Below, one piece after another: positions 18,926 through 28,637 of a stretch of 64,000 bases of DNA (position 1 is its first letter; each line of letters starts with the position of its first letter). The stretch lies in NCBI GenBank assembly GCA_017541975.1, contig JAFXYB010000005.1, positions 534-64,533 of the forward strand, written 5' to 3'. The stretch comes from a bacterium (GTDB lineage: Bacteria > Bacillota_I > Bacilli_A > Izemoplasmatales > UBA1188). Both the position numbers and the translations under genes were made by a program. The notes beneath the pieces were generated by a model. It ran no database searches, was not told the origin of the DNA, and was given only the letters and a program-made list of their open reading frames with translations.

Positions 18926-19423
18926 CTATTTTATAGTAACTTCTTTATTTGTATAATCTTCTATCCTTTTTACGATGGATAAAAGTTGTTTTTTATTCAT
19001 ATATGATACGAATATCCTTTTCTTTGAATCATCATTCATTATGAATTCAAGGTATTTCTTCTTTTTTGAATGGCCATTCATTTTTTCACCATTTGAATTT
19101 GATTCAGAAAGAATCACTTTGAATTCCTTCATATCGGTTAAATCTACTTCTACTTTACTTTGAACTCTATCTTCTTGAAATAGACCATAATCTTTACCTA
19201 TTTTAATTATCTTATCATTGAATATAATTCTATAGATTAAGAATATTTTTACGAAGAAATATATGGCAAAGGCAGATAGAAGAGATACTATTACTACTCT
19301 TAATGCATCATTATATCTAATAAGGATAAATATGAGAACACCGATAGATATCAAAGAAAAGGCTAAATACATGATTGAATCGAGACCAAATGGATAATAA
19401 GTTTTCTTATTTTTCATTATCAT
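18926..19423 (-). CDS. Hypothetical membrane protein (2 TM segments plus a soluble C-terminal domain); last gene of the aromatic operon
   Basis: Two hydrophobic helices (YLAFSLISIGVLIFILI and VIVSLLSAFAIYFFVKIFLIY). It overlaps the aminotransferase stop by 17 nt. I recognise no family. Confidence 0.5.
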   Translation of the reverse strand: MIMKNKKTYYPFGLDSIMYLAFSLISIGVLIFILIRYNDALRVVIVSLLSAFAIYFFVKIFLIYRIIFNDKIIKIGKDYGLFQEDRVQSKVEVDLTDMKEFKVILSESNSNGEKMNGHSKKKKYLEFIMNDDSKKRIFVSYMNKKQLLSIVKRIEDYTNKEVTIK

Positions 19424-20600
19424 AGTCCTCTTTTAGTTTTCTAAATGCATCAATAGATCTTTTAATCATTTCATAGTCAACACAGTATGCAATTCTAACA
19501 TATCCTTTTACGCCAAATGAATCGCTTGGGACAAGCAGTAAATCGTGCTTCATCGCTTTCTTAGAGAAAGCCTCTGAATCATCTTCAAGTGCTTTCATAA
19601 AGAGATAGAATGCGCCATCTGGATATACAAGGGTATATCCTAAATCTCTTAATGAATTATAGAGAAAGTCCCTATTTCTTTTATATTCATCAATGTTTGA
19701 TGTAAACCCTTGTGTTTCACCAATTAGATATTGGAAGATAGCTGGAGCGCAGACATAACCTAGTGCTCTTCCAGCGCCACAGACGGATTTATATAGTTCG
19801 AGTGAATTTGTGGCTGTACTTGATATGAGAATATACCCTATTCTCTCACCGGGAAGTGAAAGTGACTTACTATACGAGTAACAAACTATTGAATTATCAT
19901 AATAATTTGTGATGAATGGATATTTGATATCATCATAGATGATTTCACGGTATGGTTCATCTGAAATTATGTATATAGGGTGGTTAAATTCCTTTTCTTT
20001 GCGTTTTAAGTAAGAGGCAAGCTCTTTTATTGTGTTCTCTTTTAAAACGGCTCCAGAAGGATTATTTGGAGAATTTATGATTAATGCTTTAGTGTTTTTA
20101 TTGATGTGCTTATCAAGTTCAGTAAAATCAATCATAAAATCAAGGTTTGATTTTACTATATCTATTTTACCGCCTGCCTTTTCGATAAAGACTTTGTATT
20201 CCGGGAAGAAAGGCGCAAAGACGATTACTTCGTCTAGGTCGTTCAATATCGCATTAAATGATATTGTGAGTGATGCAGCTGCACCACAAGTAAGATAAAT
20301 TCTACCAGCACTAACATTTGCTTTATATGTTTTATTTAGATAATCTGCGATTTTATTTCTAACAACCTCATCACCAGGAGCGCTTGTGTAGCCATGAAGT
20401 TTTACGCTATTTGTCTCTTTTATGAGTTTAATTAATGACTCGTTAACGATATCTGGCGATGGAATGGAAGGATTACCGATAGAAAAATCGAAGACATTTT
20501 CTTCTCCTACTATTTTCTTTCTTTTTCTTCCGTATTCGAATAATTCTCTTATCGCTGAACCGTGGTTTCCAAGTTCAAACATTTTTTCATTATAATTCAT
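19407..20600 (-). CDS. Class I/II PLP-dependent aminotransferase
   Basis: YSYSKSLSLPGERIGY contains the PLP lysine motif, and INSPNNPSG is also present. AAGGAGG is the SD. Confidence 0.85.
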   Translation of the reverse strand: MNYNEKMFELGNHGSAIRELFEYGRKRKKIVGEENVFDFSIGNPSIPSPDIVNESLIKLIKETNSVKLHGYTSAPGDEVVRNKIADYLNKTYKANVSAGRIYLTCGAAASLTISFNAILNDLDEVIVFAPFFPEYKVFIEKAGGKIDIVKSNLDFMIDFTELDKHINKNTKALIINSPNNPSGAVLKENTIKELASYLKRKEKEFNHPIYIISDEPYREIIYDDIKYPFITNYYDNSIVCYSYSKSLSLPGERIGYILISSTATNSLELYKSVCGAGRALGYVCAPAIFQYLIGETQGFTSNIDEYKRNRDFLYNSLRDLGYTLVYPDGAFYLFMKALEDDSEAFSKKAMKHDLLLVPSDSFGVKGYVRIAYCVDYEMIKRSIDAFRKLKEDYDNEK

Positions 20601-20602
20601 CG

Positions 20603-21448
20603 TTATTCCTCCTTCATGGATAAGAGTTTACAAGCATTTTTAAATAGAATATTATCTTTTTCTTCTTGAGTTAGTGGAAGGCTATTTATAACATCCACCA
20701 TCGATTTCGCATCAATCCAAGGATTGTCGCTTCCGAATAATACTTTTTCACTTCCGTGTTTTTTAATCATTTTAATGATTAGTTCTCTATCTGTGATATC
20801 GACATAACCTTTTTCCATATGATGCACAGTTCCAAAACTCATGGCAGTATCGATATAGAGATTCTTCCCTAAAATATATTCATAAGATTCCTTGTGTTCA
20901 TCAAGTGAACCCATATGAGCGAGAACTAATGTTCCTTTATTTAAATCAATTTTATCCAAGAACGATAATATTTTTGTATAAGTTGAATATAGCCTTTCTG
21001 GAAAACCTGGATCGAGTCCTGCATGAAATACAACAATGAGTCCAAGTGAAAAAGCTTCGTTTACAATATCGACATATGAATCACTATCCATATCTACAAA
21101 TTGATATACTGGATGAAGTTTGATACCTTTTACACCATTATCTTTTAATCTTCTAAGTTCCTTTTTATAATCCTTATAATTAGGATGCATTGTGCCAAAA
21201 AAGATTATCTTTTTATTTTCTTTTTTGTTCATGAAGATGGTTTGATCGTTAACGATTTCAACCTGTTCGGGTTTAGTGGCAACTGGAAGGATAATAGAAT
21301 AATTGATACCAGTTCTTTCCATGTCTTTAAGGATGCCGATATCGGTTCCATCAAAATATGGAACAAAGCTTATAGCTTCAGATAGATTATGAAGCGCTTT
21401 TTCAACTATTACATCTGGAAAGATGTGGGTGTGGAAATCAATTATCAT
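20603..21448 (-). CDS. Amidohydrolase-2 (TIM-barrel metal-dependent hydrolase/decarboxylase) family protein
   Basis: IIDFHTHIFP at the N-terminus, with HPVYQ, HAG and GSDNPW later. The ORF track starts at TTG 21475 inside the upstream gene. I prefer ATG 21448, 4 nt after the upstream stop. Confidence 0.7.
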   Translation of the reverse strand: MIIDFHTHIFPDVIVEKALHNLSEAISFVPYFDGTDIGILKDMERTGINYSIILPVATKPEQVEIVNDQTIFMNKKENKKIIFFGTMHPNYKDYKKELRRLKDNGVKGIKLHPVYQFVDMDSDSYVDIVNEAFSLGLIVVFHAGLDPGFPERLYSTYTKILSFLDKIDLNKGTLVLAHMGSLDEHKESYEYILGKNLYIDTAMSFGTVHHMEKGYVDITDRELIIKMIKKHGSEKVLFGSDNPWIDAKSMVDVINSLPLTQEEKDNILFKNACKLLSMKEE

Positions 21449-21452
21449 ATTT

Positions 21453-23090
21453 TTACGCTGTTGTCTGTTCCTCAACGAGATTGAGTGTTGAGTACATCAT
21501 TCTTAATTTTGGTTTTTCAATTTTTCCTGTTGGGTTTCTTGGCACATCCGCAAAGATTATTTTTCTTGGACGTTTATATCTTGGAAGAGCTAGGCAGAAA
21601 TTATTTACTTCATCTTCTGTCATCTCTATATTTTCTTTCAAAGATATAATAGCAAGAGTAGCTTCACCAAGACGTTTATCTGGAATACCGATTACCGCAA
21701 CATCCTTAACTTTATTATTGGTTCTAAGGAAATCTTCAATTTGAACCGGATAGAGATTCTCTCCACCACTTATGATAACATCTTTCTTTCTATCTACTAA
21801 ATAAATAAAATAATCTTTATCATATTTTGCCATATCACCGGTATATAACCAGTCTCCATCTAGGATTTCTTTAGTCGCTTTTTCATTGTTGTAATAACAT
21901 TTCATAACGCCAGGTCCCTTAACCGCAAGTTCACCAACTTTATTTGGTTCATTTATTTCGTTATGGTTTTCATCAACAATCTTAGTTTCCCAGTTAAATC
22001 CAGCTTTACCGATTGAACCAACCTTATTAATATTCTCTACTCCGAGGTGAACGCAACCAGGACCTATCGATTCAGAAAGGCCATAGTTTGTATCATATTC
22101 GTGTGTTGGGAAGACTTTTAACCATCTGTGAATTAGCGATGGTGGAACTGGCTGTGCACCAACGTGCATTAGTCTCCACTGTTTGATTTCATAATCTTCT
22201 AGTTTTAATTCTCCTCTTTCAAGGGCATCTAATATATCTTGAACCCAAGGAACTAAGAGCCAAACGATTGTGCATTTTTCTAATGAAACAGTTTCTAAAA
22301 TCCATTCTGGTTTAACACCACGAAGGAGAACCGCTTTAGATCCACTATAAAGGCTTCCAAACCAGTGCATCTTCGCGCCAGTATGATAGAGTGGTGGGAT
22401 GCATAAGAAACAGTCATTCTTAGTTTGAGAATGGTGGTTTTGTTCAGTAATGGCACTATTAATTAGAGCTTTATGGGTATGGAGAATAGCTTTTGGAAAA
22501 CCTGTGGTTCCACTTGAAAAATAGATAGCTGCATCATCATCTTCATTTAATTCTATATTTGGTTTTCTTGATGTATAGAGGTTGATATATTCGTCATAAC
22601 TTTCTGCGAACGATGGTGTATCTTCTCCTACATAGATTATGTGCTTAATGTTTGTGAGCGTATCAAATATCGATTCAATACGTCCAATAAATTCAAATCC
22701 AAATACTAAAATACTACATTCAGCAAGTTCTAAACAATATTTAATCTCATCTTGAGTATATCTATAGTTTAGTGGTACGGCAAGAGCGCCAGTTTTAAGG
22801 ATACCAAAATAGATAGGTAGCCATTCAAGCGAATTCATAAGAAGTATTGCGACTTTATCTTTCTTCTTAACACCTTTCGATAGAAGCATGTTCGCAAAAC
22901 GGTTAGAACTCTTATTAAACTCTTCCCAGTTTATTTCTCTTCTGTATTCAGTCGCTTTAGATGGTTCTATTAAGCTGTATTCTTTCCACGTTACATACTT
23001 CTCTGGCTTTTTTAGTGGGTTTATTTCAACTAAAGCTGTGTCTTTAGGAAATTCACTGGCGTTTCGCTCTAATAAATCTGTAATAATCAT
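21453..23090 (-). CDS. AMP-dependent synthetase/ligase (acyl- or aryl-CoA ligase, ANL superfamily)
   Basis: AMP-binding motif YFSSGTTGFPKA, plus YTGDMAKYD, GGENLYP and PRNPTGKI. Confidence 0.85.
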   Translation of the reverse strand: MIITDLLERNASEFPKDTALVEINPLKKPEKYVTWKEYSLIEPSKATEYRREINWEEFNKSSNRFANMLLSKGVKKKDKVAILLMNSLEWLPIYFGILKTGALAVPLNYRYTQDEIKYCLELAECSILVFGFEFIGRIESIFDTLTNIKHIIYVGEDTPSFAESYDEYINLYTSRKPNIELNEDDDAAIYFSSGTTGFPKAILHTHKALINSAITEQNHHSQTKNDCFLCIPPLYHTGAKMHWFGSLYSGSKAVLLRGVKPEWILETVSLEKCTIVWLLVPWVQDILDALERGELKLEDYEIKQWRLMHVGAQPVPPSLIHRWLKVFPTHEYDTNYGLSESIGPGCVHLGVENINKVGSIGKAGFNWETKIVDENHNEINEPNKVGELAVKGPGVMKCYYNNEKATKEILDGDWLYTGDMAKYDKDYFIYLVDRKKDVIISGGENLYPVQIEDFLRTNNKVKDVAVIGIPDKRLGEATLAIISLKENIEMTEDEVNNFCLALPRYKRPRKIIFADVPRNPTGKIEKPKLRMMYSTLNLVEEQTTA

Positions 23091-23102
23091 ATAAACTCCC
23101 GT

Positions 23103-23537
23103 TTAATCTTTTTTTATTAAGTCCTCATCACTTAATAATTTAATGTTGTGTGTTTTAAATAATTCTATCGCTTTATCCTCGTCTTCTACCTTTAGCATTA
23201 CGGATGCATAGTTTCCATATGAACCGATGAAGGCATAAAGATAGGCAACATTTAAGTTTGCAGCATCTAATACCTTGAGGGCATCCTTTAGTCCTCCTGG
23301 TTCATTAGATATCTTTATTGCGATAACATCGTTGATTTTTACAACATATTTGTTTTCTTTTAAGAGAGATAGGGCTTCATTTGGTTTATCGACAATAAGC
23401 CTTAATACACCATAATCGACTGTATCAGCGATGCATAGAGCTTTTATATCGATGTTATTTTCACCAAGAATGGAAATAATATCTAGTAATGCACCTTTAT
23501 GATTTTCTACGAAAATCGAAACTTGTTTAACTTTCAT
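23103..23537 (-). CDS. ACT-domain protein (tandem ACT, the type usually paired with PaaK-like ligases)
   Basis: 144 aa with two beta-alpha-beta-beta-alpha-beta-like repeats (VSIFVENHKGALLDI; IAIKISNEPGGLKDA). Confidence 0.7.
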   Translation of the reverse strand: MKVKQVSIFVENHKGALLDIISILGENNIDIKALCIADTVDYGVLRLIVDKPNEALSLLKENKYVVKINDVIAIKISNEPGGLKDALKVLDAANLNVAYLYAFIGSYGNYASVMLKVEDEDKAIELFKTHNIKLLSDEDLIKKD

Positions 23538-23545
23538 AACTCCTC

Positions 23546-24847
23546 CTATCTTATTACTCTCTTATCGATTACTCTTTTAGCTTTTCCTTCGCTTCTTTCA
23601 ATTGTCTTTGGACCAACTAGAGTAACCTGTGCGCTTAAACCTAAGACACTTCTTAAGTTATCGCGAATCTTAGATGATATTAATTCGATTGATTTAACAT
23701 CATCAAAGAAGAAATCTTCATTCATCTCAACCTTAACTTCTAAGGTATCAGTATTATTAACTCTATCGACAATAATCTGATAATTTGGAGTAATGCCTTC
23801 TCCATATTTTAGTAATACTTCTTCTATTTGTGATGGGAAGACATTTACACCTCTAATAATTAACATATCATCAGTTCTGCCTTCAATTCTGCCCATCCTT
23901 TTGAAGGTTCTACCACAAGAACATTTTCCAGTTAAGATTCTACAAAGATCATGTGTTCTATATCTTATTACTGGGAATGCTTCTTTGGTAATTGATGTGA
24001 AGACGAGTTCACCAACTTCACCATCAGGAAGAACTTCTCCTGTGTCAGGATTAATGATTTCTGGGATAAACATATCTTCATTTATGTGAAGGCCTTTTTG
24101 ACATTCACATTCGTAAGATACGCCAGGGCCAAGAACTTCCGATAAGCCGTAGATATCATAGGCTTTGATACCAAGTTTTGATTCGATTTGTTTCCTCATC
24201 TCTTCTCCCCATGGTTCAGCGCCAAGGACAGCCTTTTTAACTTTTAGTTTATCTCTTAAATTATTTGATTCAAGTTCTTCCGCAAGATACATGCAGTAGG
24301 ATGGTGTTGCGCAGATAGCAGTTGCACCAAAATCTACCATCGTATTCATCTGTCTTACTGTATTTCCTGTCGAGGCAGGAATTACAGTGCAACCAAGATG
24401 AGATGCACCATCATGAAGACCTAGTCCACCGGTAAATAGTCCATATCCGTAGCAAACCTGCAAGATATCATTCTTATCGATACCATAGGAATTTAGGGCT
24501 CTTGAAACGCATAAAGCCCACATATCTAAGTCACCTTTAGTGTAGCCAACAACGATTTGTTTACCTGTGGTACCACTTGATGCGTGAATTCTAACTACAT
24601 TTTCTAAAGGTTCTGCGAATAGGCCATATGGGTAATTATCCCTTAAATCTTGTTTATTAGAAAATGGTAATTTAGGTAAATCTTTGATGGATTTGATATC
24701 GCTTGGTTTTAGATTTAAGTCATCCATTCTCTTTTTGAAGAGTGGAACTCTTTCATAAACTCTTTTTATTTGTTTAACGAGTCTTTCACTTTGAAGTGCT
24801 TCAAGTGATTCTCTATCCATACATTCAATGTTTTTATCGTATATCAT
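23546..24847 (-). CDS. paaK: Phenylacetate-CoA ligase family protein
   Basis: HASSGTTGKQIVVGYT, YGLSE and RYRTHD motifs, with a typical PaaK length of 433 aa. Confidence 0.85.
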   Translation of the reverse strand: MIYDKNIECMDRESLEALQSERLVKQIKRVYERVPLFKKRMDDLNLKPSDIKSIKDLPKLPFSNKQDLRDNYPYGLFAEPLENVVRIHASSGTTGKQIVVGYTKGDLDMWALCVSRALNSYGIDKNDILQVCYGYGLFTGGLGLHDGASHLGCTVIPASTGNTVRQMNTMVDFGATAICATPSYCMYLAEELESNNLRDKLKVKKAVLGAEPWGEEMRKQIESKLGIKAYDIYGLSEVLGPGVSYECECQKGLHINEDMFIPEIINPDTGEVLPDGEVGELVFTSITKEAFPVIRYRTHDLCRILTGKCSCGRTFKRMGRIEGRTDDMLIIRGVNVFPSQIEEVLLKYGEGITPNYQIIVDRVNNTDTLEVKVEMNEDFFFDDVKSIELISSKIRDNLRSVLGLSAQVTLVGPKTIERSEGKAKRVIDKRVIR

Positions 24848-25413
24848 TAGCTTTGAGTTCCCCTTTCAAATGCATTTATATTTAGTTCTACATACTTAGA
24901 TGGAACTGTGTTTTTGATAACTTCTATCCATTTTTCATATGGGATATCTAGCTCTCTCGCAAAAGCACCGATAAGCACGACATTTGCGCATTTAGGATTT
25001 CCAAGTTCTGTGGCTATTTTTGTCGAATCAAGTTCAATTACATTAACTTTTTCTTTTAATTTTTTAATAATATCCTTTGGATATTCCATCGCGCCTGTGA
25101 TAACTGGCATTGGATCTATTCTTGTCGAATTTATTACCATTACTCCATCCTTTTTAAGATATGGAAGTGCACGGTAAGCTTCTAAAGTTTCAAAGGCGAG
25201 GATGATATCAGCTTCACCTTTATCGATTATTGGTGAATAGATTTTATCGCCATATTTAACATAGGTGGTAACTGAACCACCTCTTTGACTCATGCCATGC
25301 ACCTCAGAGACTTTGGTGTCATAGCCAAGAGTGATTGCGAGATTTCCAATTATTCTTGATGCGAGGAGTGTACCTTGTCCACCAACACCGACAATCATAA
25401 TACTCTTATTCAT
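24847..25413 (-). CDS. iorB: Indolepyruvate:ferredoxin oxidoreductase, beta subunit
   Basis: IVGVGGQGTLLASRI and HGMSQRGGSV motifs. It sits directly after iorA. Confidence 0.85.
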   Translation of the reverse strand: MNKSIMIVGVGGQGTLLASRIIGNLAITLGYDTKVSEVHGMSQRGGSVTTYVKYGDKIYSPIIDKGEADIILAFETLEAYRALPYLKKDGVMVINSTRIDPMPVITGAMEYPKDIIKKLKEKVNVIELDSTKIATELGNPKCANVVLIGAFARELDIPYEKWIEVIKNTVPSKYVELNINAFERGTQS

Positions 25414-25416
25414 ATT

Positions 25417-27153
25417 TTATTCCTCCACCTTGATAATCGCTTTAAATGGACAGACATTTAAGCATAATGAACAACCATTGCATTGGTTCTTATCAATTAT
25501 TACTTTTGAATCTTTAATTGATATGGCAGAACAACCAAGTTTCATACACATCTTGCATTTCTTACAGTTGTCAGTGATGAAGGCTTTGCCTTCATATTTA
25601 ACTCCTTTTAGAAGTGCACAAGGTCTCTCAGCAATTATTAATGATGGTTCACTAACTTCTACCTCTTCCTTAACAATCCTTTCAAACTCTTTAATATTGA
25701 ACGGATCACATACGCTAATTCTTTCAATACCAATTGATTTCGCAAGAGCGATTAAGTTTAGCTGTTTGGTTTCCTCTTTTCTTATTGTATAGCCAGTGGT
25801 TGGGTTATCTTGATGTCCGGTCATACCAGTTATGGAATTATCTAGGATAATAACTGTGCTAATTCCTTTATTGTAGACAACATCAATTAAACCAGTTATA
25901 CCTGAATGGACGAATGTTGAATCTCCAATTACTGCCACTAACTTTTTATTAAATTCTTCGCCTCTAACCTTTGCCATGCCGTGTGCAACACCGATTGATG
26001 CACCCATACATACAACACTATCAACGGCATTTAATGGGTTTGTCGCTCCCAGTGTATAACAACCTATGTCGCCTGATACTGTTAAACCGAGTTTATTGAG
26101 GACATAGAATGTGCCTCTATGAGGGCATCCTGGGCACATGACAGGAGGTCTTCCTGGGAGAGTTTCTTCTATTTCAAAGTGAGGATACATATCTTCACCT
26201 AGGATAGCCTTTCTTATCATACTTGGTGTGTATTCATAAAGAAGTGAGAAGACTTCCTTACCGATGACAGGAATACCGATAGATTTACAGTGTTCTTCGA
26301 TGAAAGGATCTAATTCTTCTATTACATAGACTTTATCAAGGTCTTTAACGAATTCTTTAATCTTCTCAACTGGAAGCGGATATGATATACCGAGTTTTAG
26401 ATAGTTTACTTTATTACCTAGTGCTTCCCTCGAATATAGATATGATATGCCAGTAGTGATAACGCCTATTTTAGAATTATTATCAAATACTTCATTCAGT
26501 TCACTTGTCTCAGCTAACTCTTCTAGAGTTTTCATCCTATCTTCAACGATAACGTGACGCTTGATGGCATTGCCTGGCATCATCACATTCTTTGTCAGGT
26601 TCTTAATATATGGTTTTAAATCAACCAATTCTCTTTCTTCAAGTTCTACTAAGCTTTGCGAGTGAGAAACACGAGTTGAAAGCCTTAGTAGTACTGGAAC
26701 GTCGTATTTTTCTGATAATGAAAAAGCTATTTTAGTGTAGTCTTTGCATTCTTTACTATCCGCTGGTTCAAGCATGAGAAGTTTCGCAGCTTTGGCATAA
26801 TGCCTTGAGTCCTGTTCATTTTGTGATGAATGCATACCAGGATCATCCGCAACCGCAAACACTAAACCACCATTAACACCTATATAACTAATGGTAAAAA
26901 GTGGATCCGCCATAACGTTCATTCCGACATGTTTCATACAGGCCATGCTTCTTGCGCCGGCAAGCGATGCACCGATTGCCACTTCTGATGCGACCTTTTC
27001 ATTTGGAGCCCATTCACAGTATATATCCTCGTACTTTACAATCGATTCAGTTATCTCTGTAGAAGGAGTTCCAGGATATGATGATACGAGTCTTACCCCC
27101 GCTTCAAAACATCCTCTGGCGACCGCTTCATTTCCTAACATTAGTTTTTTCAT
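25417..27153 (-). CDS. iorA: Indolepyruvate:ferredoxin oxidoreductase, alpha subunit (TPP-binding, 2x[4Fe-4S])
   Basis: TPP-binding GDSTF...GxxG region. The C-terminus has CKKCKMCMKLGC and CNGCSLCLNVCP ferredoxin motifs. The SD is TGAGGTG. Confidence 0.9.
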   Translation of the reverse strand: MKKLMLGNEAVARGCFEAGVRLVSSYPGTPSTEITESIVKYEDIYCEWAPNEKVASEVAIGASLAGARSMACMKHVGMNVMADPLFTISYIGVNGGLVFAVADDPGMHSSQNEQDSRHYAKAAKLLMLEPADSKECKDYTKIAFSLSEKYDVPVLLRLSTRVSHSQSLVELEERELVDLKPYIKNLTKNVMMPGNAIKRHVIVEDRMKTLEELAETSELNEVFDNNSKIGVITTGISYLYSREALGNKVNYLKLGISYPLPVEKIKEFVKDLDKVYVIEELDPFIEEHCKSIGIPVIGKEVFSLLYEYTPSMIRKAILGEDMYPHFEIEETLPGRPPVMCPGCPHRGTFYVLNKLGLTVSGDIGCYTLGATNPLNAVDSVVCMGASIGVAHGMAKVRGEEFNKKLVAVIGDSTFVHSGITGLIDVVYNKGISTVIILDNSITGMTGHQDNPTTGYTIRKEETKQLNLIALAKSIGIERISVCDPFNIKEFERIVKEEVEVSEPSLIIAERPCALLKGVKYEGKAFITDNCKKCKMCMKLGCSAISIKDSKVIIDKNQCNGCSLCLNVCPFKAIIKVEE

Positions 27154-27202
27154 AAAGACACCTCATTTTATTTTATTATAATATATTTTATTCTATAAAT
27201 TA

Positions 27203-27236
27203 AAAGAAAAAATGCGCTTCTTACAGTAGCGCATTT
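27203..27236 (-). terminator. Intrinsic terminator / candidate attenuator 50 nt upstream of iorA
   Basis: Minus-strand RNA forms AAAUGCGCU-ACUGUAAGA-AGCGCAUUU (9-bp stem) followed by UUUCUUUUAAUUU. Confidence 0.8.
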
Positions 27237-27319
27237 AATTAACTTTTTATTACGTTACTGCTTAAATCTATTTGTTTTACTGCAATAACGTTAATTCTAA
27301 AATCAAAAGAACCAAATTA

Positions 27320-27382
27320 TCACAGATTGGTTAGATAAAAGTAATAAAAGTAATAAAAGCTAAAAGTATAATTGGTTCTCAT
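27320..27382 (-). CDS. Candidate leader-peptide sORF MRTNYTFSFYYFYYFYLTNL (10 of 20 residues Phe/Tyr)
   Basis: GAGGAG (27396..27391) lies 8 nt before ATG 27382, and the TGA stop is at 27322..27320. The ORF is too short for the ORF track. The aromatic run is built from the 9-nt repeat TTTTATTAC x3. Confidence 0.45.
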   Translation of the reverse strand: MRTNYTFSFYYFYYFYLTNL

Positions 27383-27431
27383 GGATATATCTCCTCATAA
27401 GATTTTATTGTATATTGCCACAACTCTATTT

Positions 27432-27923
27432 TTAATTCAAGAGGTTTTCAAAAATATTATTAAAATATTTTATTTTTTCTTCTATCTCTTTATCTTTTTC
27501 ATATTCAAAAGAAAAATAATACTCCATAAGAAAGATTGAGAACGCATCCGCATCAATTAAAAAATCATATTTCTTATTCTTAATTTTATGATAGTTTTGG
27601 TGTTCTACCTTCCATAAATCAATCTTTTCTGTATCATAATATTTAAAAAGATTTTTATAACTCTTGAGTTCTATCTCCATCGCTTGATAGATGATTCTTA
27701 CACTTTTGAAAATGATTCTATAGATGGAATGCTTATTGGCATTTAAAATAAAAATTGGGCTTAGATGTATGATAAATTTAGTTAAATCTAAGTCAAGTGC
27801 GCTAACTCTATCATCTATATCATATACGATAGATCCACTTATATTTAAGAACCTTTCGCACCTATCGATTGCGTCATTTATTATATCTATTTTTTCTCTT
27901 GTAAAATCTCTATTATCCAACAT
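27432..27923 (-). CDS. Hypothetical protein (163 aa, predicted helical, no family recognised)
   Basis: An intact ORF with GAAGGT 8 nt upstream of the ATG, divergent from the TetR gene. Confidence 0.5.
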   Translation of the reverse strand: MLDNRDFTREKIDIINDAIDRCERFLNISGSIVYDIDDRVSALDLDLTKFIIHLSPIFILNANKHSIYRIIFKSVRIIYQAMEIELKSYKNLFKYYDTEKIDLWKVEHQNYHKIKNKKYDFLIDADAFSIFLMEYYFSFEYEKDKEIEEKIKYFNNIFENLLN

Positions 27924-28030: not shown

Positions 28031-28088
28031 TGTCAATTAAATTATTTTATAAAAGATAATTGACAAATGGTTATTGCTTCACTATAAT
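28031..28088 (+). promoter_or_regulatory. Perfect-consensus promoter TTGACA-17-TATAAT with an overlapping palindromic operator
   Basis: TTGACA at 28060..28065, a 17-nt spacer, and TATAAT at 28083..28088. The perfect 9-bp inverted repeat TGTCAATTA (28031..28039) / TAATTGACA (28057..28065) has its right arm covering the -35. A further TGTCAAT copy lies at 27999..28005. Confidence 0.7.
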
Positions 28089-28121
28089 GTAATTGATAAA
28101 AATGTATATGGAGAAATTATT

Positions 28122-28637
28122 ATGCCAAAAATAGTTTTTGAAAAAATATCAAAAGATAAACAATTCAAATTATTAAAGCCTGCAGTAAAAGAATTCGTTT
28201 CTAAACCATATAATAAAATTACAGTATCAAGTCTAACAGATAGAATGAGGATATTAAGAACCGATTTCTACTACTACTTCAGTGATAAAGATGATATCTA
28301 TGATGCACTACTTGATATCTTCTATCAAACATCAACTGAAGGTAAGGAAGGCTTGAGTTTTCATGATGCATTAAAAGCTTTCTTTGAAAAGATAATTGAA
28401 ATTGATGGATCAAGAATGAGACAATACATCATCGACATTACTGAAAGCTACCATCCACAATTCGCCTTTGAACTTGCGAAGAAGATTAAAAAGATGTTTA
28501 AGTGCTCATGTGATGGCGATAAACCTCAGGTTAAGATAATGACTAAGATATATCGTTTCATGACAATTGTGAATTTATACGAAAAAGGAAGTTTATCTGT
28601 GCAAAGCGCAAGAGAACTTCTAGATAGTAAAGAATAA
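28122..28637 (+). CDS. TetR/AcrR-family transcriptional regulator
   Basis: The N-terminal HTH (ITVSSLTDRMRILRTDFYYYFSDKDDIY) is typical of TetR. I prefer ATG 28122 (GGAG SD, downstream of the mapped promoter) over the track start at 28074. Confidence 0.8.
   Translation: MPKIVFEKISKDKQFKLLKPAVKEFVSKPYNKITVSSLTDRMRILRTDFYYYFSDKDDIYDALLDIFYQTSTEGKEGLSFHDALKAFFEKIIEIDGSRMRQYIIDITESYHPQFAFELAKKIKKMFKCSCDGDKPQVKIMTKIYRFMTIVNLYEKGSLSVQSARELLDSKE

Follow-up and report, generated by a model that had tools for sequence, protein, structure and literature searches.

Does a short, aromatic-rich reading frame in front of iorA control the ior genes, and if so, in response to what signal? The question is raised by a 64,000-nt stretch of DNA from a low-GC rumen bacterium (contig JAFXYB010000005.1; "the window" below means this whole stretch), in which a leader open reading frame (ORF), several hairpins and an intrinsic terminator precede the first gene of an operon of IOR and aryl-acetate-CoA ligase genes. 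The leader, the ior operon and a candidate promoter for the leader, P1, are all on the minus strand. An initial annotation made from the sequence alone had proposed a ribosome-mediated attenuator, and this is supported by a conserved Shine-Dalgarno (SD) sequence, reading frame and set of helix arms, by loops that vary, by a compensatory change in the terminator and by tyrosine T-boxes in relatives, although one of the annotated structures, a stem enclosing the ORF, had to be dropped. The elements of the attenuator exist, are selectively conserved and are mutually exclusive in their complementarity. We consider it reasonably likely that the leader is a ribosome-mediated transcription attenuator that couples the ior operon to the supply of charged tRNA-Phe and tRNA-Tyr.

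The leader ORF (27320..27382) starts with the ATG at 27382, reads MRTNYTFSFYYFYYFYLTNL and has 20 codons plus a TGA (27322..27320), followed by a second in-frame stop, TAA (27319..27317). Its SD sequence, GAGGAG (27396..27391), lies 8 nt 5′ of the ATG. These positions, and those of the hairpin and terminator discussed below, were verified on the minus strand as originally annotated, and a recount likewise returned 10 Phe or Tyr codons out of 20. The aromatic block at codons 9–16 (27358..27335) stems from a 9-nt repeat, TTTTATTAC, which had been described as occurring three times and is present in 2.8 perfect copies. This run of 8 aromatic residues is the longest among the 858 small ORFs (sORFs, 8–45 aa) of the window, where the runner-up has 5, and it was reached in 0 of 30 Markov simulations. 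Across 80 related loci, none of 6821 sORFs had a run of 6 or more. Only the leader, among the 15 aromatic-rich sORFs listed for the window, has a clear SD sequence upstream. Two other views of the ORF were set aside. Genetic code 4, under which UGA would be read as Trp and add a Trp codon to the leader, was rejected: the long ORFs are intact under code 11, TGA ends 6 of 51 of them, and TGG makes up 0.75% of codons. A type I toxin or the precursor of a ribosomally synthesized and post-translationally modified peptide was also rejected, the peptide being too short and having neither a membrane-spanning stretch nor maturation genes nearby.

The initial annotation suggested comparing the regions upstream of iorA in relatives, and two groups of loci proved informative. 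Lineage A consists of the window, L083 and L087, with IorA homologues 95–97% identical, and lineage B (L084, L085 and L086; IorA 85% identical) is a second species-level lineage in which both the aromatic sORF and the hairpins are kept. The lineage A relatives have the same leader with Tyr16 replaced by Phe. In lineage B, AAGGAG is followed after 6 nt by an ATG and a 20-codon ORF, MRKNNSFAFYYYYYFFKTNL, which ends in TGA-TAA and has Phe or Tyr at 9 of its 20 codons; its SD sequence sits in different surrounding sequence from that of lineage A. Arg2 has synonymous codons in the two lineages (AGA in A, CGT in B), Phe7 is TTT in A but TTC in B, and the substitutions within the aromatic block are exclusively exchanges of Phe and Tyr. 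Peptide residues outside the block (MR.N and TNL) are also kept between the lineages, and the conserved TNL codons coincide with segment 0 of the RNA, described below. A 5′-proximal hairpin (27377..27402) encloses the SD sequence and AUG in the minimum free energy (MFE) structure of both lineages. The stems of this hairpin differ, CUUAUG/CAUGAG in A and ACGCA/UGCGU in B (L084:401-424), and the Arg2 codon (AGA or CGU) lies within the stem in both.

As a neutral yardstick we used the 4-fold degenerate sites of iorA, at which the two lineages are 48% identical (77/161). Against this, the F/Y (Phe/Tyr) block is 92% identical, segment 0 at the stop codon 92%, segment 1′ 85% and segment 3, taken as the terminator 5′ arm with the three opening bases of its loop, 92%; segment 2 is the most conserved block, at 95% (20 of 21 columns). 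The loops and spacers of the leader reach 25–57%. The blocks of high identity coincide exactly with those that are mutually complementary. The gene upstream is a different one in lineage B, which has no homologue of the 163-aa ORF found there in the window; the module travels with iorA and not with the upstream gene. The 163-aa ORF itself (27432-27923, minus strand) has no Pfam match, occurs in lineage A only and is 91% identical in L087; its final codons share sequence with the leader's conserved promoter-like region.

Segment 0, the stop-codon region CUGUGAUAAUUUGGUUCU (27308..27325), forms the 5′ arm of helix 0:1′. Segment 1′ (27280..27298) can pair with segment 0 or, via 27291..27282, with segment 2. 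Segment 2 (GCAGUAACGUAAUAAA plus flank, 27239..27264) has as alternative partners the F/Y codons, segment 1′ and segment 3 (27223..27236), the latter made up of the terminator 5′ arm AAAUGCGCU (27236..27228) and the first bases of the loop. Segment 4 (27202..27218) is the terminator 3′ arm AGCGCAUUU (27218..27210) with the U tract, and the complete terminator, AAAUGCGCU-N9-AGCGCAUUU plus U tract (27236..27202), stands 50 nt before iorA.

The helices that these segments can form are largely shared by the two lineages. Helix 1′:2, the middle hairpin of the initial annotation (27291..27282 with 27261..27252), pairs at 10 of 10 positions in A and 9 of 10 in B, with energies of −9.6 and −9.4 kcal/mol. 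The antiterminator, helix 2:3 (27232..27223 with segment 2), pairs at 9 of 10 positions in both (−8.7 and −8.1 kcal/mol), the mismatch falling at a differing position in each. The terminator, helix 3:4, is a 9-bp GC-containing stem of −11.3 kcal/mol in A and −12.2 kcal/mol in B. Helix 0:1′ (27325..27308 with 27298..27280) has 18 bp in A, at −13.0 kcal/mol; in B, at −10.8 kcal/mol, the lower 10 bp are retained, with a U-G pair replaced by C-G, and the upper stem is different. The energies of the four helices are comparable in lineage A. An antiterminator weaker than its terminator is a feature of the trp leader too, and helix 2:3 is the MFE structure of the sub-sequence present until segment 4 is transcribed. 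The middle hairpin, the terminator and the 2:3 complementarity, all part of the initial annotation, are present in the window and kept in lineage B.

Several details of the comparison fall on the helix arms. In the terminator, C-G in lineage A corresponds to a compensatory U-A in lineage B, and the C to U change also turns an A·C mismatch of helix 2:3 into A-U. Only the first three bases of the terminator loop (ACU), which join helix 2:3, are conserved, and the loop between 1′ and 2 is 53% identical. In the MFE structure the UUUAUUAC repeats of the F/Y codons are paired, within segment 2, with GUAAUAAA and the bases that flank it, GUAAUAAA being complementary to UUU-UAU-UAC codons. RNAalifold, run on four sequences, returned F/Y:2 stacked on 1′:2, a small hairpin at the stop codon and the terminator. 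The stem that was thought to enclose the ORF, between codons 2–5 and 27320..27308, pairs at 11 of 12 positions in A and 6 of 12 in B; it is not conserved, is absent from the unconstrained MFE structure and is probably a chance pairing.

The initial annotation had left a gap, in that it offered no route by which the position of the ribosome would reach the first arm of the middle hairpin. The conserved helix 0:1′, together with the pairing of the F/Y codons with segment 2, is the link we propose. To follow it, the RNA of both lineages was folded as it stands before the terminator 3′ arm emerges, with 29 nt masked for the ribosome. In the state with no ribosome, helices 0:1′ and F/Y:2 form and segment 3 is free. 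When the A site is at codons 9–12 (codons 7–12 in A and 9–14 in B), helix 0:1′ forms together with a 9-10 bp 2:3 antiterminator. With the ribosome at codon 16 or at the stop codon, segment 0 is covered, 1′:2 is formed and segment 3 is again free in both lineages.

These states are what a biosynthetic attenuator would require, and they suggest the following mechanism. Transcription would start at a promoter overlapping 27440..27412, and the leader ORF would be translated while RNA polymerase proceeds; we infer that the leader and iorA are then parts of one transcript. When Phe or Tyr is scarce, the ribosome would stall in the F/Y codons, at about codons 7–14, and mask the partners of segment 2. 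Segment 0 would stay free during the stall and capture segment 1′, leaving segment 2 with the terminator 5′ arm alone, so that 2:3 would form in place of the terminator and iorA would be transcribed. When both amino acids are replete, the ribosome would reach UGA-UAA and cover segment 0, 1′:2 would form, and 3:4 would terminate transcription. If the leader is not translated at all, 0:1′ and F/Y:2 would form and 3:4 would terminate once more.

The operon that would be regulated (19407..27153, with the iorA ATG at 27153) was delimited from Pfam matches, gene order and homology to relatives, and it contains iorA, iorB, paaK and genes for an ACT-pair protein, a 545-aa AMP-forming ligase, an amidohydrolase and a class I/II aminotransferase. 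Among more distant ior loci, some have a different kind of leader. A motif scan for the T-box sequence GGUGGUACCRCG found it in 23 of 80 such loci, upstream of iorA on the same strand in 22 of them and, in L023, downstream of iorA and inside the operon; UAC (Tyr) is at the expected specifier offset in 21 of the 23. Rfam covariance models confirmed five of these T-boxes (L003:2029-2279, L004:2034-2272, L018:2029-2280, L062:1987-2261 and L023:8156-8396), the other 18 being identified by motif alone. The Rfam T-boxes on the iorA strand in related Clostridia score 105-125 bits, and all have the specifier loop GAA-UAC-A (Tyr). In these uncultured Clostridia the genes next to the T-box encode a sodium:solute symporter and/or an AMP-forming ligase, with iorA-iorB coming directly after them, and the T-box-controlled ligase is 69% identical to the 545-aa ligase of the window. 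L023, a low-GC Bacilli metagenome-assembled genome (MAG), has the gene order of the window, iorA-iorB-paaK-ACT-ligase, with the Tyr T-box immediately 5′ of the ligase. Because of the Tyr T-boxes on these homologous genes, the genes are predicted to be induced by uncharged tRNA-Tyr in many relatives.

The direction in which the operon works matters for the sense of the signal. AMP-forming ligases beside IOR have been argued to indicate biosynthesis (PMC13285125). C. difficile also has iorAB homologues, in a catabolic aminotransferase-iorAB-butK operon that, unlike the one in the window, is SigL (sigma-54) dependent, uses an acyl kinase instead of AMP-forming ligases and runs in the opposite metabolic direction (PMC7438776). 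Because of this contrast, the published argument, the two AMP-forming ligases, the aminotransferase and the Tyr T-boxes of relatives, we favour an anabolic direction, from aryl-acetate through aryl-acetyl-CoA and aryl-pyruvate to Phe and Tyr, with PaaK presumably serving Phe and the 545-aa ligase Tyr. In that direction derepression on a shortage of Phe- or Tyr-tRNA is sensible, and the AMP-forming ligases, the aminotransferase and the T-boxes of relatives speak against the catabolic, tnaC-like scheme that the initial annotation had kept as its alternative.

A number of results weigh against the attenuator. The element is carried by two independent lineages only: none of the leader motifs was found in 80 species-representative loci with IorA 69-79% identical, and a scan of JGI metagenomes with a pattern of segment 2 and the terminator returned one lineage A contig of the same species and one chance match. 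In the 80 loci, neither the 450 nt in front of iorA nor the remainder of the iorA strand contains a run-rich or SD-preceded aromatic sORF; the few aromatic-rich sORFs flagged there by looser thresholds have runs of at most 5 and no SD sequence. Five loci at 75-78% IorA identity have a gene directly upstream of iorA, with no leader. True covariation in the RNAalifold comparison of four sequences is confined to a single pair, in the terminator, and the case therefore rests on block-wise conservation. MFE folding of the full leader at equilibrium kept the terminator in every masked state; equilibrium thermodynamics therefore does not discriminate between the states, and the switch is visible only in the kinetic-style prefix folding. 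In an MFE-based control in which the spacer was dinucleotide-shuffled, the energetic amplitude of the switch was matched or exceeded by 25 of 400 shuffled versions of the window sequence and by 60 of 400 of that of L084 (p ~0.06 and ~0.15, not significant); an earlier and stricter criterion was invalid, since it was not passed by the native sequences either. The energetics thus fit the model but are not evidence alone. RNA polymerase runs ahead of the lead ribosome in B. subtilis (PMC9226507, PMC7858274), so that control of amino-acid genes by leader attenuation is a priori less expected in Bacilli.

The main caveat concerns promoters. In L081, whose IorA is 97% identical, everything upstream of the terminator loop has given way to an IS-type transposase ORF, which lies on the opposite strand; the breakpoint lies inside that loop (L081:1-560), so that the 5′ arm and the entire leader are lost and iorA is retained. 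Either P2, a candidate promoter downstream of the terminator, suffices there, or the insertion has deregulated the operon. A TATAAT between the terminator and iorA (27180..27175) is perfectly conserved in both lineages, and a promoter scan of L084 gave TTAAGA-16-TATAAT at the same place. Since this conserved TATAAT, within TATTATAAT, lies downstream of the terminator, iorA may have a promoter of its own.

This observation opens the strongest of the alternatives, that P1, the sORF, the structured RNA and the terminator make up an independent small-protein or small-RNA unit, which the terminator would insulate from iorA, and that iorA is promoted separately at TATTATAAT. The TATAAT is part of a perfect palindrome, TATTATAATA (27174..27183), which could be P2 or an operator; it is conserved downstream of the terminator in 10 of 11 columns between A and B within diverged flanks, coincides with the promoter-like match in L084, and lies in the only part of this region that L081 keeps with iorA. 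A TetR-family gene is found near the palindrome (28074..28637, plus strand). The other promoter candidate, P1 (27412..27440), consists of TTGAAT (27440..27435), a 17-nt spacer ending in TGG, and CAATAT (27417..27412), a consensus-level match only, with an implied transcription start near 27405; the layout TTGAAT-N14-TGN-(C/A)A(A/T)TAT is kept in lineage B despite its different upstream gene. Conservation of the peptide outside the aromatic block would also fit a small protein, but the TNL codons coincide with RNA segment 0, and a 20-aa peptide with no membrane-spanning stretch is unlike a type I toxin. The RNA has no match in Rfam. A separate unit would further leave unexplained the complementarity of segment 2 to three other conserved blocks, the terminator 5′ arm among them, the conservation of the first three bases of the terminator loop, and the attachment of the module to iorA through a change of upstream context. 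We regard such a unit as unlikely.

Still less likely is that the same RNA switch responds to another trigger, either a tnaC-like arrest peptide sensing free Phe, Tyr or an aryl-acid, or an RNA-binding protein such as the ACT-pair protein. In its favour, the alternative helices and the residues at both ends of the peptide are conserved, and the operon does encode an amino-acid-binding ACT protein. Set against this, the conserved run consists of codons for the predicted products of the pathway and tolerates exchange of Phe for Tyr, which fits codon sensing better than an arrest motif; relatives sense the charging of tRNA-Tyr directly through their T-boxes; and no repeated protein-binding motif, such as the (G/U)AG repeats of TRAP, was seen in the sequence, although no dedicated motif search was made. 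That the sORF arose by chance and the terminator merely ends the 163-aa gene, as AT-rich DNA favouring TTT and TAT codons, the tandem repeat behind the aromatic run and the lack of any other terminator between the stop of that gene (27432) and 27236 might suggest, is highly improbable and effectively excluded by lineage B, which has the sORF, hairpins and terminator without the gene, its blocks conserved far above the neutral level and its SD sequence kept in different surroundings, and no comparable sORF exists among the 858 and 6821 controls.

The leader is probably a new member of the leader-peptide attenuator class, with the pheA/pheST and his-type attenuators as the closest functional match. 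It resembles the enterobacterial pheA (pheL) and pheST attenuators in having a leader ORF rich in what would be the cognate codons, an intrinsic terminator ahead of the operon's first structural gene and mutually exclusive 1:2, 2:3 and 3:4 pairings that ribosome position would select. It differs from them in that Phe and Tyr codons are mixed about equally, it comes from a rumen bacterium of low GC content (32.7% in the window) with Bacilli MAGs as its closest named relatives, and the operon is one of IOR/aryl-acetate-CoA ligase salvage rather than of shikimate-branch or tRNA synthetase genes. The dual Phe and Tyr codons, the low-GC Firmicute host and the new kind of regulated operon are what set it apart. 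The enterobacterial his, leu and thr attenuators are multi-segment relays (A:B, C:D, E:F versus B:C, D:E), and the leader in the window likewise has more than four segments, with an extra helix that would relay ribosome position to a terminator about 85 nt past the stop codon. Its sequence is unrelated to theirs, and in the window the regulatory codons themselves pair with the central segment (UUUAUUAC with GUAAUAAA).

The Rfam searches agree with the absence of a known leader family. Unlike pheA and pheST, the leader matches none: the whole window gave no match at the gathering score, an E-value search of 26900..27700 gave chance-level matches only (E >= 0.33), and Phe_leader and the other amino-acid leader families were absent from that region up to E = 10. 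The T-box model (RF00230; Stem I with specifier loop, and GGUGGUACCGCG) likewise found no match in the window, whereas the same search scores 105-125 bits in related loci. The Tyr T-box leaders of the ligase-iorAB operons in Clostridia and the Bacilli MAG share with the proposed attenuator the operon family, an uncharged-tRNA signal and read-through of a terminator. In contrast, a T-box binds the tRNA directly and requires no translation, while the window has a translated sORF that would sense Phe as well. We found nothing relevant in the literature on T-box or leader-peptide control of ior operons.

That a stalled ribosome can act in this way in Firmicutes is seen with vmlR and msrD, antibiotic resistance genes in which a ribosome stalled on a leader ORF blocks the terminator (PMC9226507; bioRxiv 10.1101/2021.11.29.470318). 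Ribosome-mediated attenuation does occur in B. subtilis for vmlR (PMC9226507), and these cases show the mechanism to be feasible in Firmicutes; the stalling there is drug-induced, in contrast to the aminoacyl-tRNA starvation proposed for the window.

The fullest form of the proposal joins several steps. In it, an amino-acid-sensing attenuator in a low-GC, Bacilli-type rumen bacterium reads interleaved Phe and Tyr codons, has replaced the Tyr T-box of relatives and marks an anabolic IOR operon, and for that combination as a whole we see the balance as even. Amino-acid leader-peptide attenuators are textbook in Proteobacteria, and T-boxes dominate in Firmicutes. Such attenuators are also known in Actinobacteria (PMC1262725). 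If the proposal is right, the same operon would offer a clean non-homologous replacement of a T-box by a leader peptide. The IOR/aryl-acetate-CoA ligase operon would be anabolic, turning phenylacetate and 4-hydroxyphenylacetate into Phe and Tyr, and its leader would give an independent regulatory argument for biosynthetic IOR and ligases in gut and rumen Firmicutes, a direction still argued from enzyme data (PMC13285125). The Tyr T-boxes on the homologous operons, which are apparently undescribed in the searchable literature, argue for the same direction. The lead ribosome would also have to be near enough to RNA polymerase for leader-peptide control in this lineage, and the unusually long relay may leave room for it to trail by about 110-130 nt, making the locus a natural test case for the degree of transcription-translation coupling that such a switch needs.

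Some further observations concern the order of the ior genes in relatives. In L089, L092 and L093 (75% IorA identity) the cluster runs symporter or oxidoreductase, 545-aa ligase, iorA, iorB, paaK and ACT; in the lineage of the window the 545-aa ligase has moved downstream of ACT, leaving iorA as the first gene. In the Clostridia MAG locus L003 a 448-aa ORF (L003:5761-7107) with a weak GH26/Ig-domain match splits the iorA-iorB pair. Just upstream of the T-box-controlled operon in L004, a Gut-1 RNA (RF01706, 69 bits; L004:1663-1847, minus strand) lies beside a tRNA gene.

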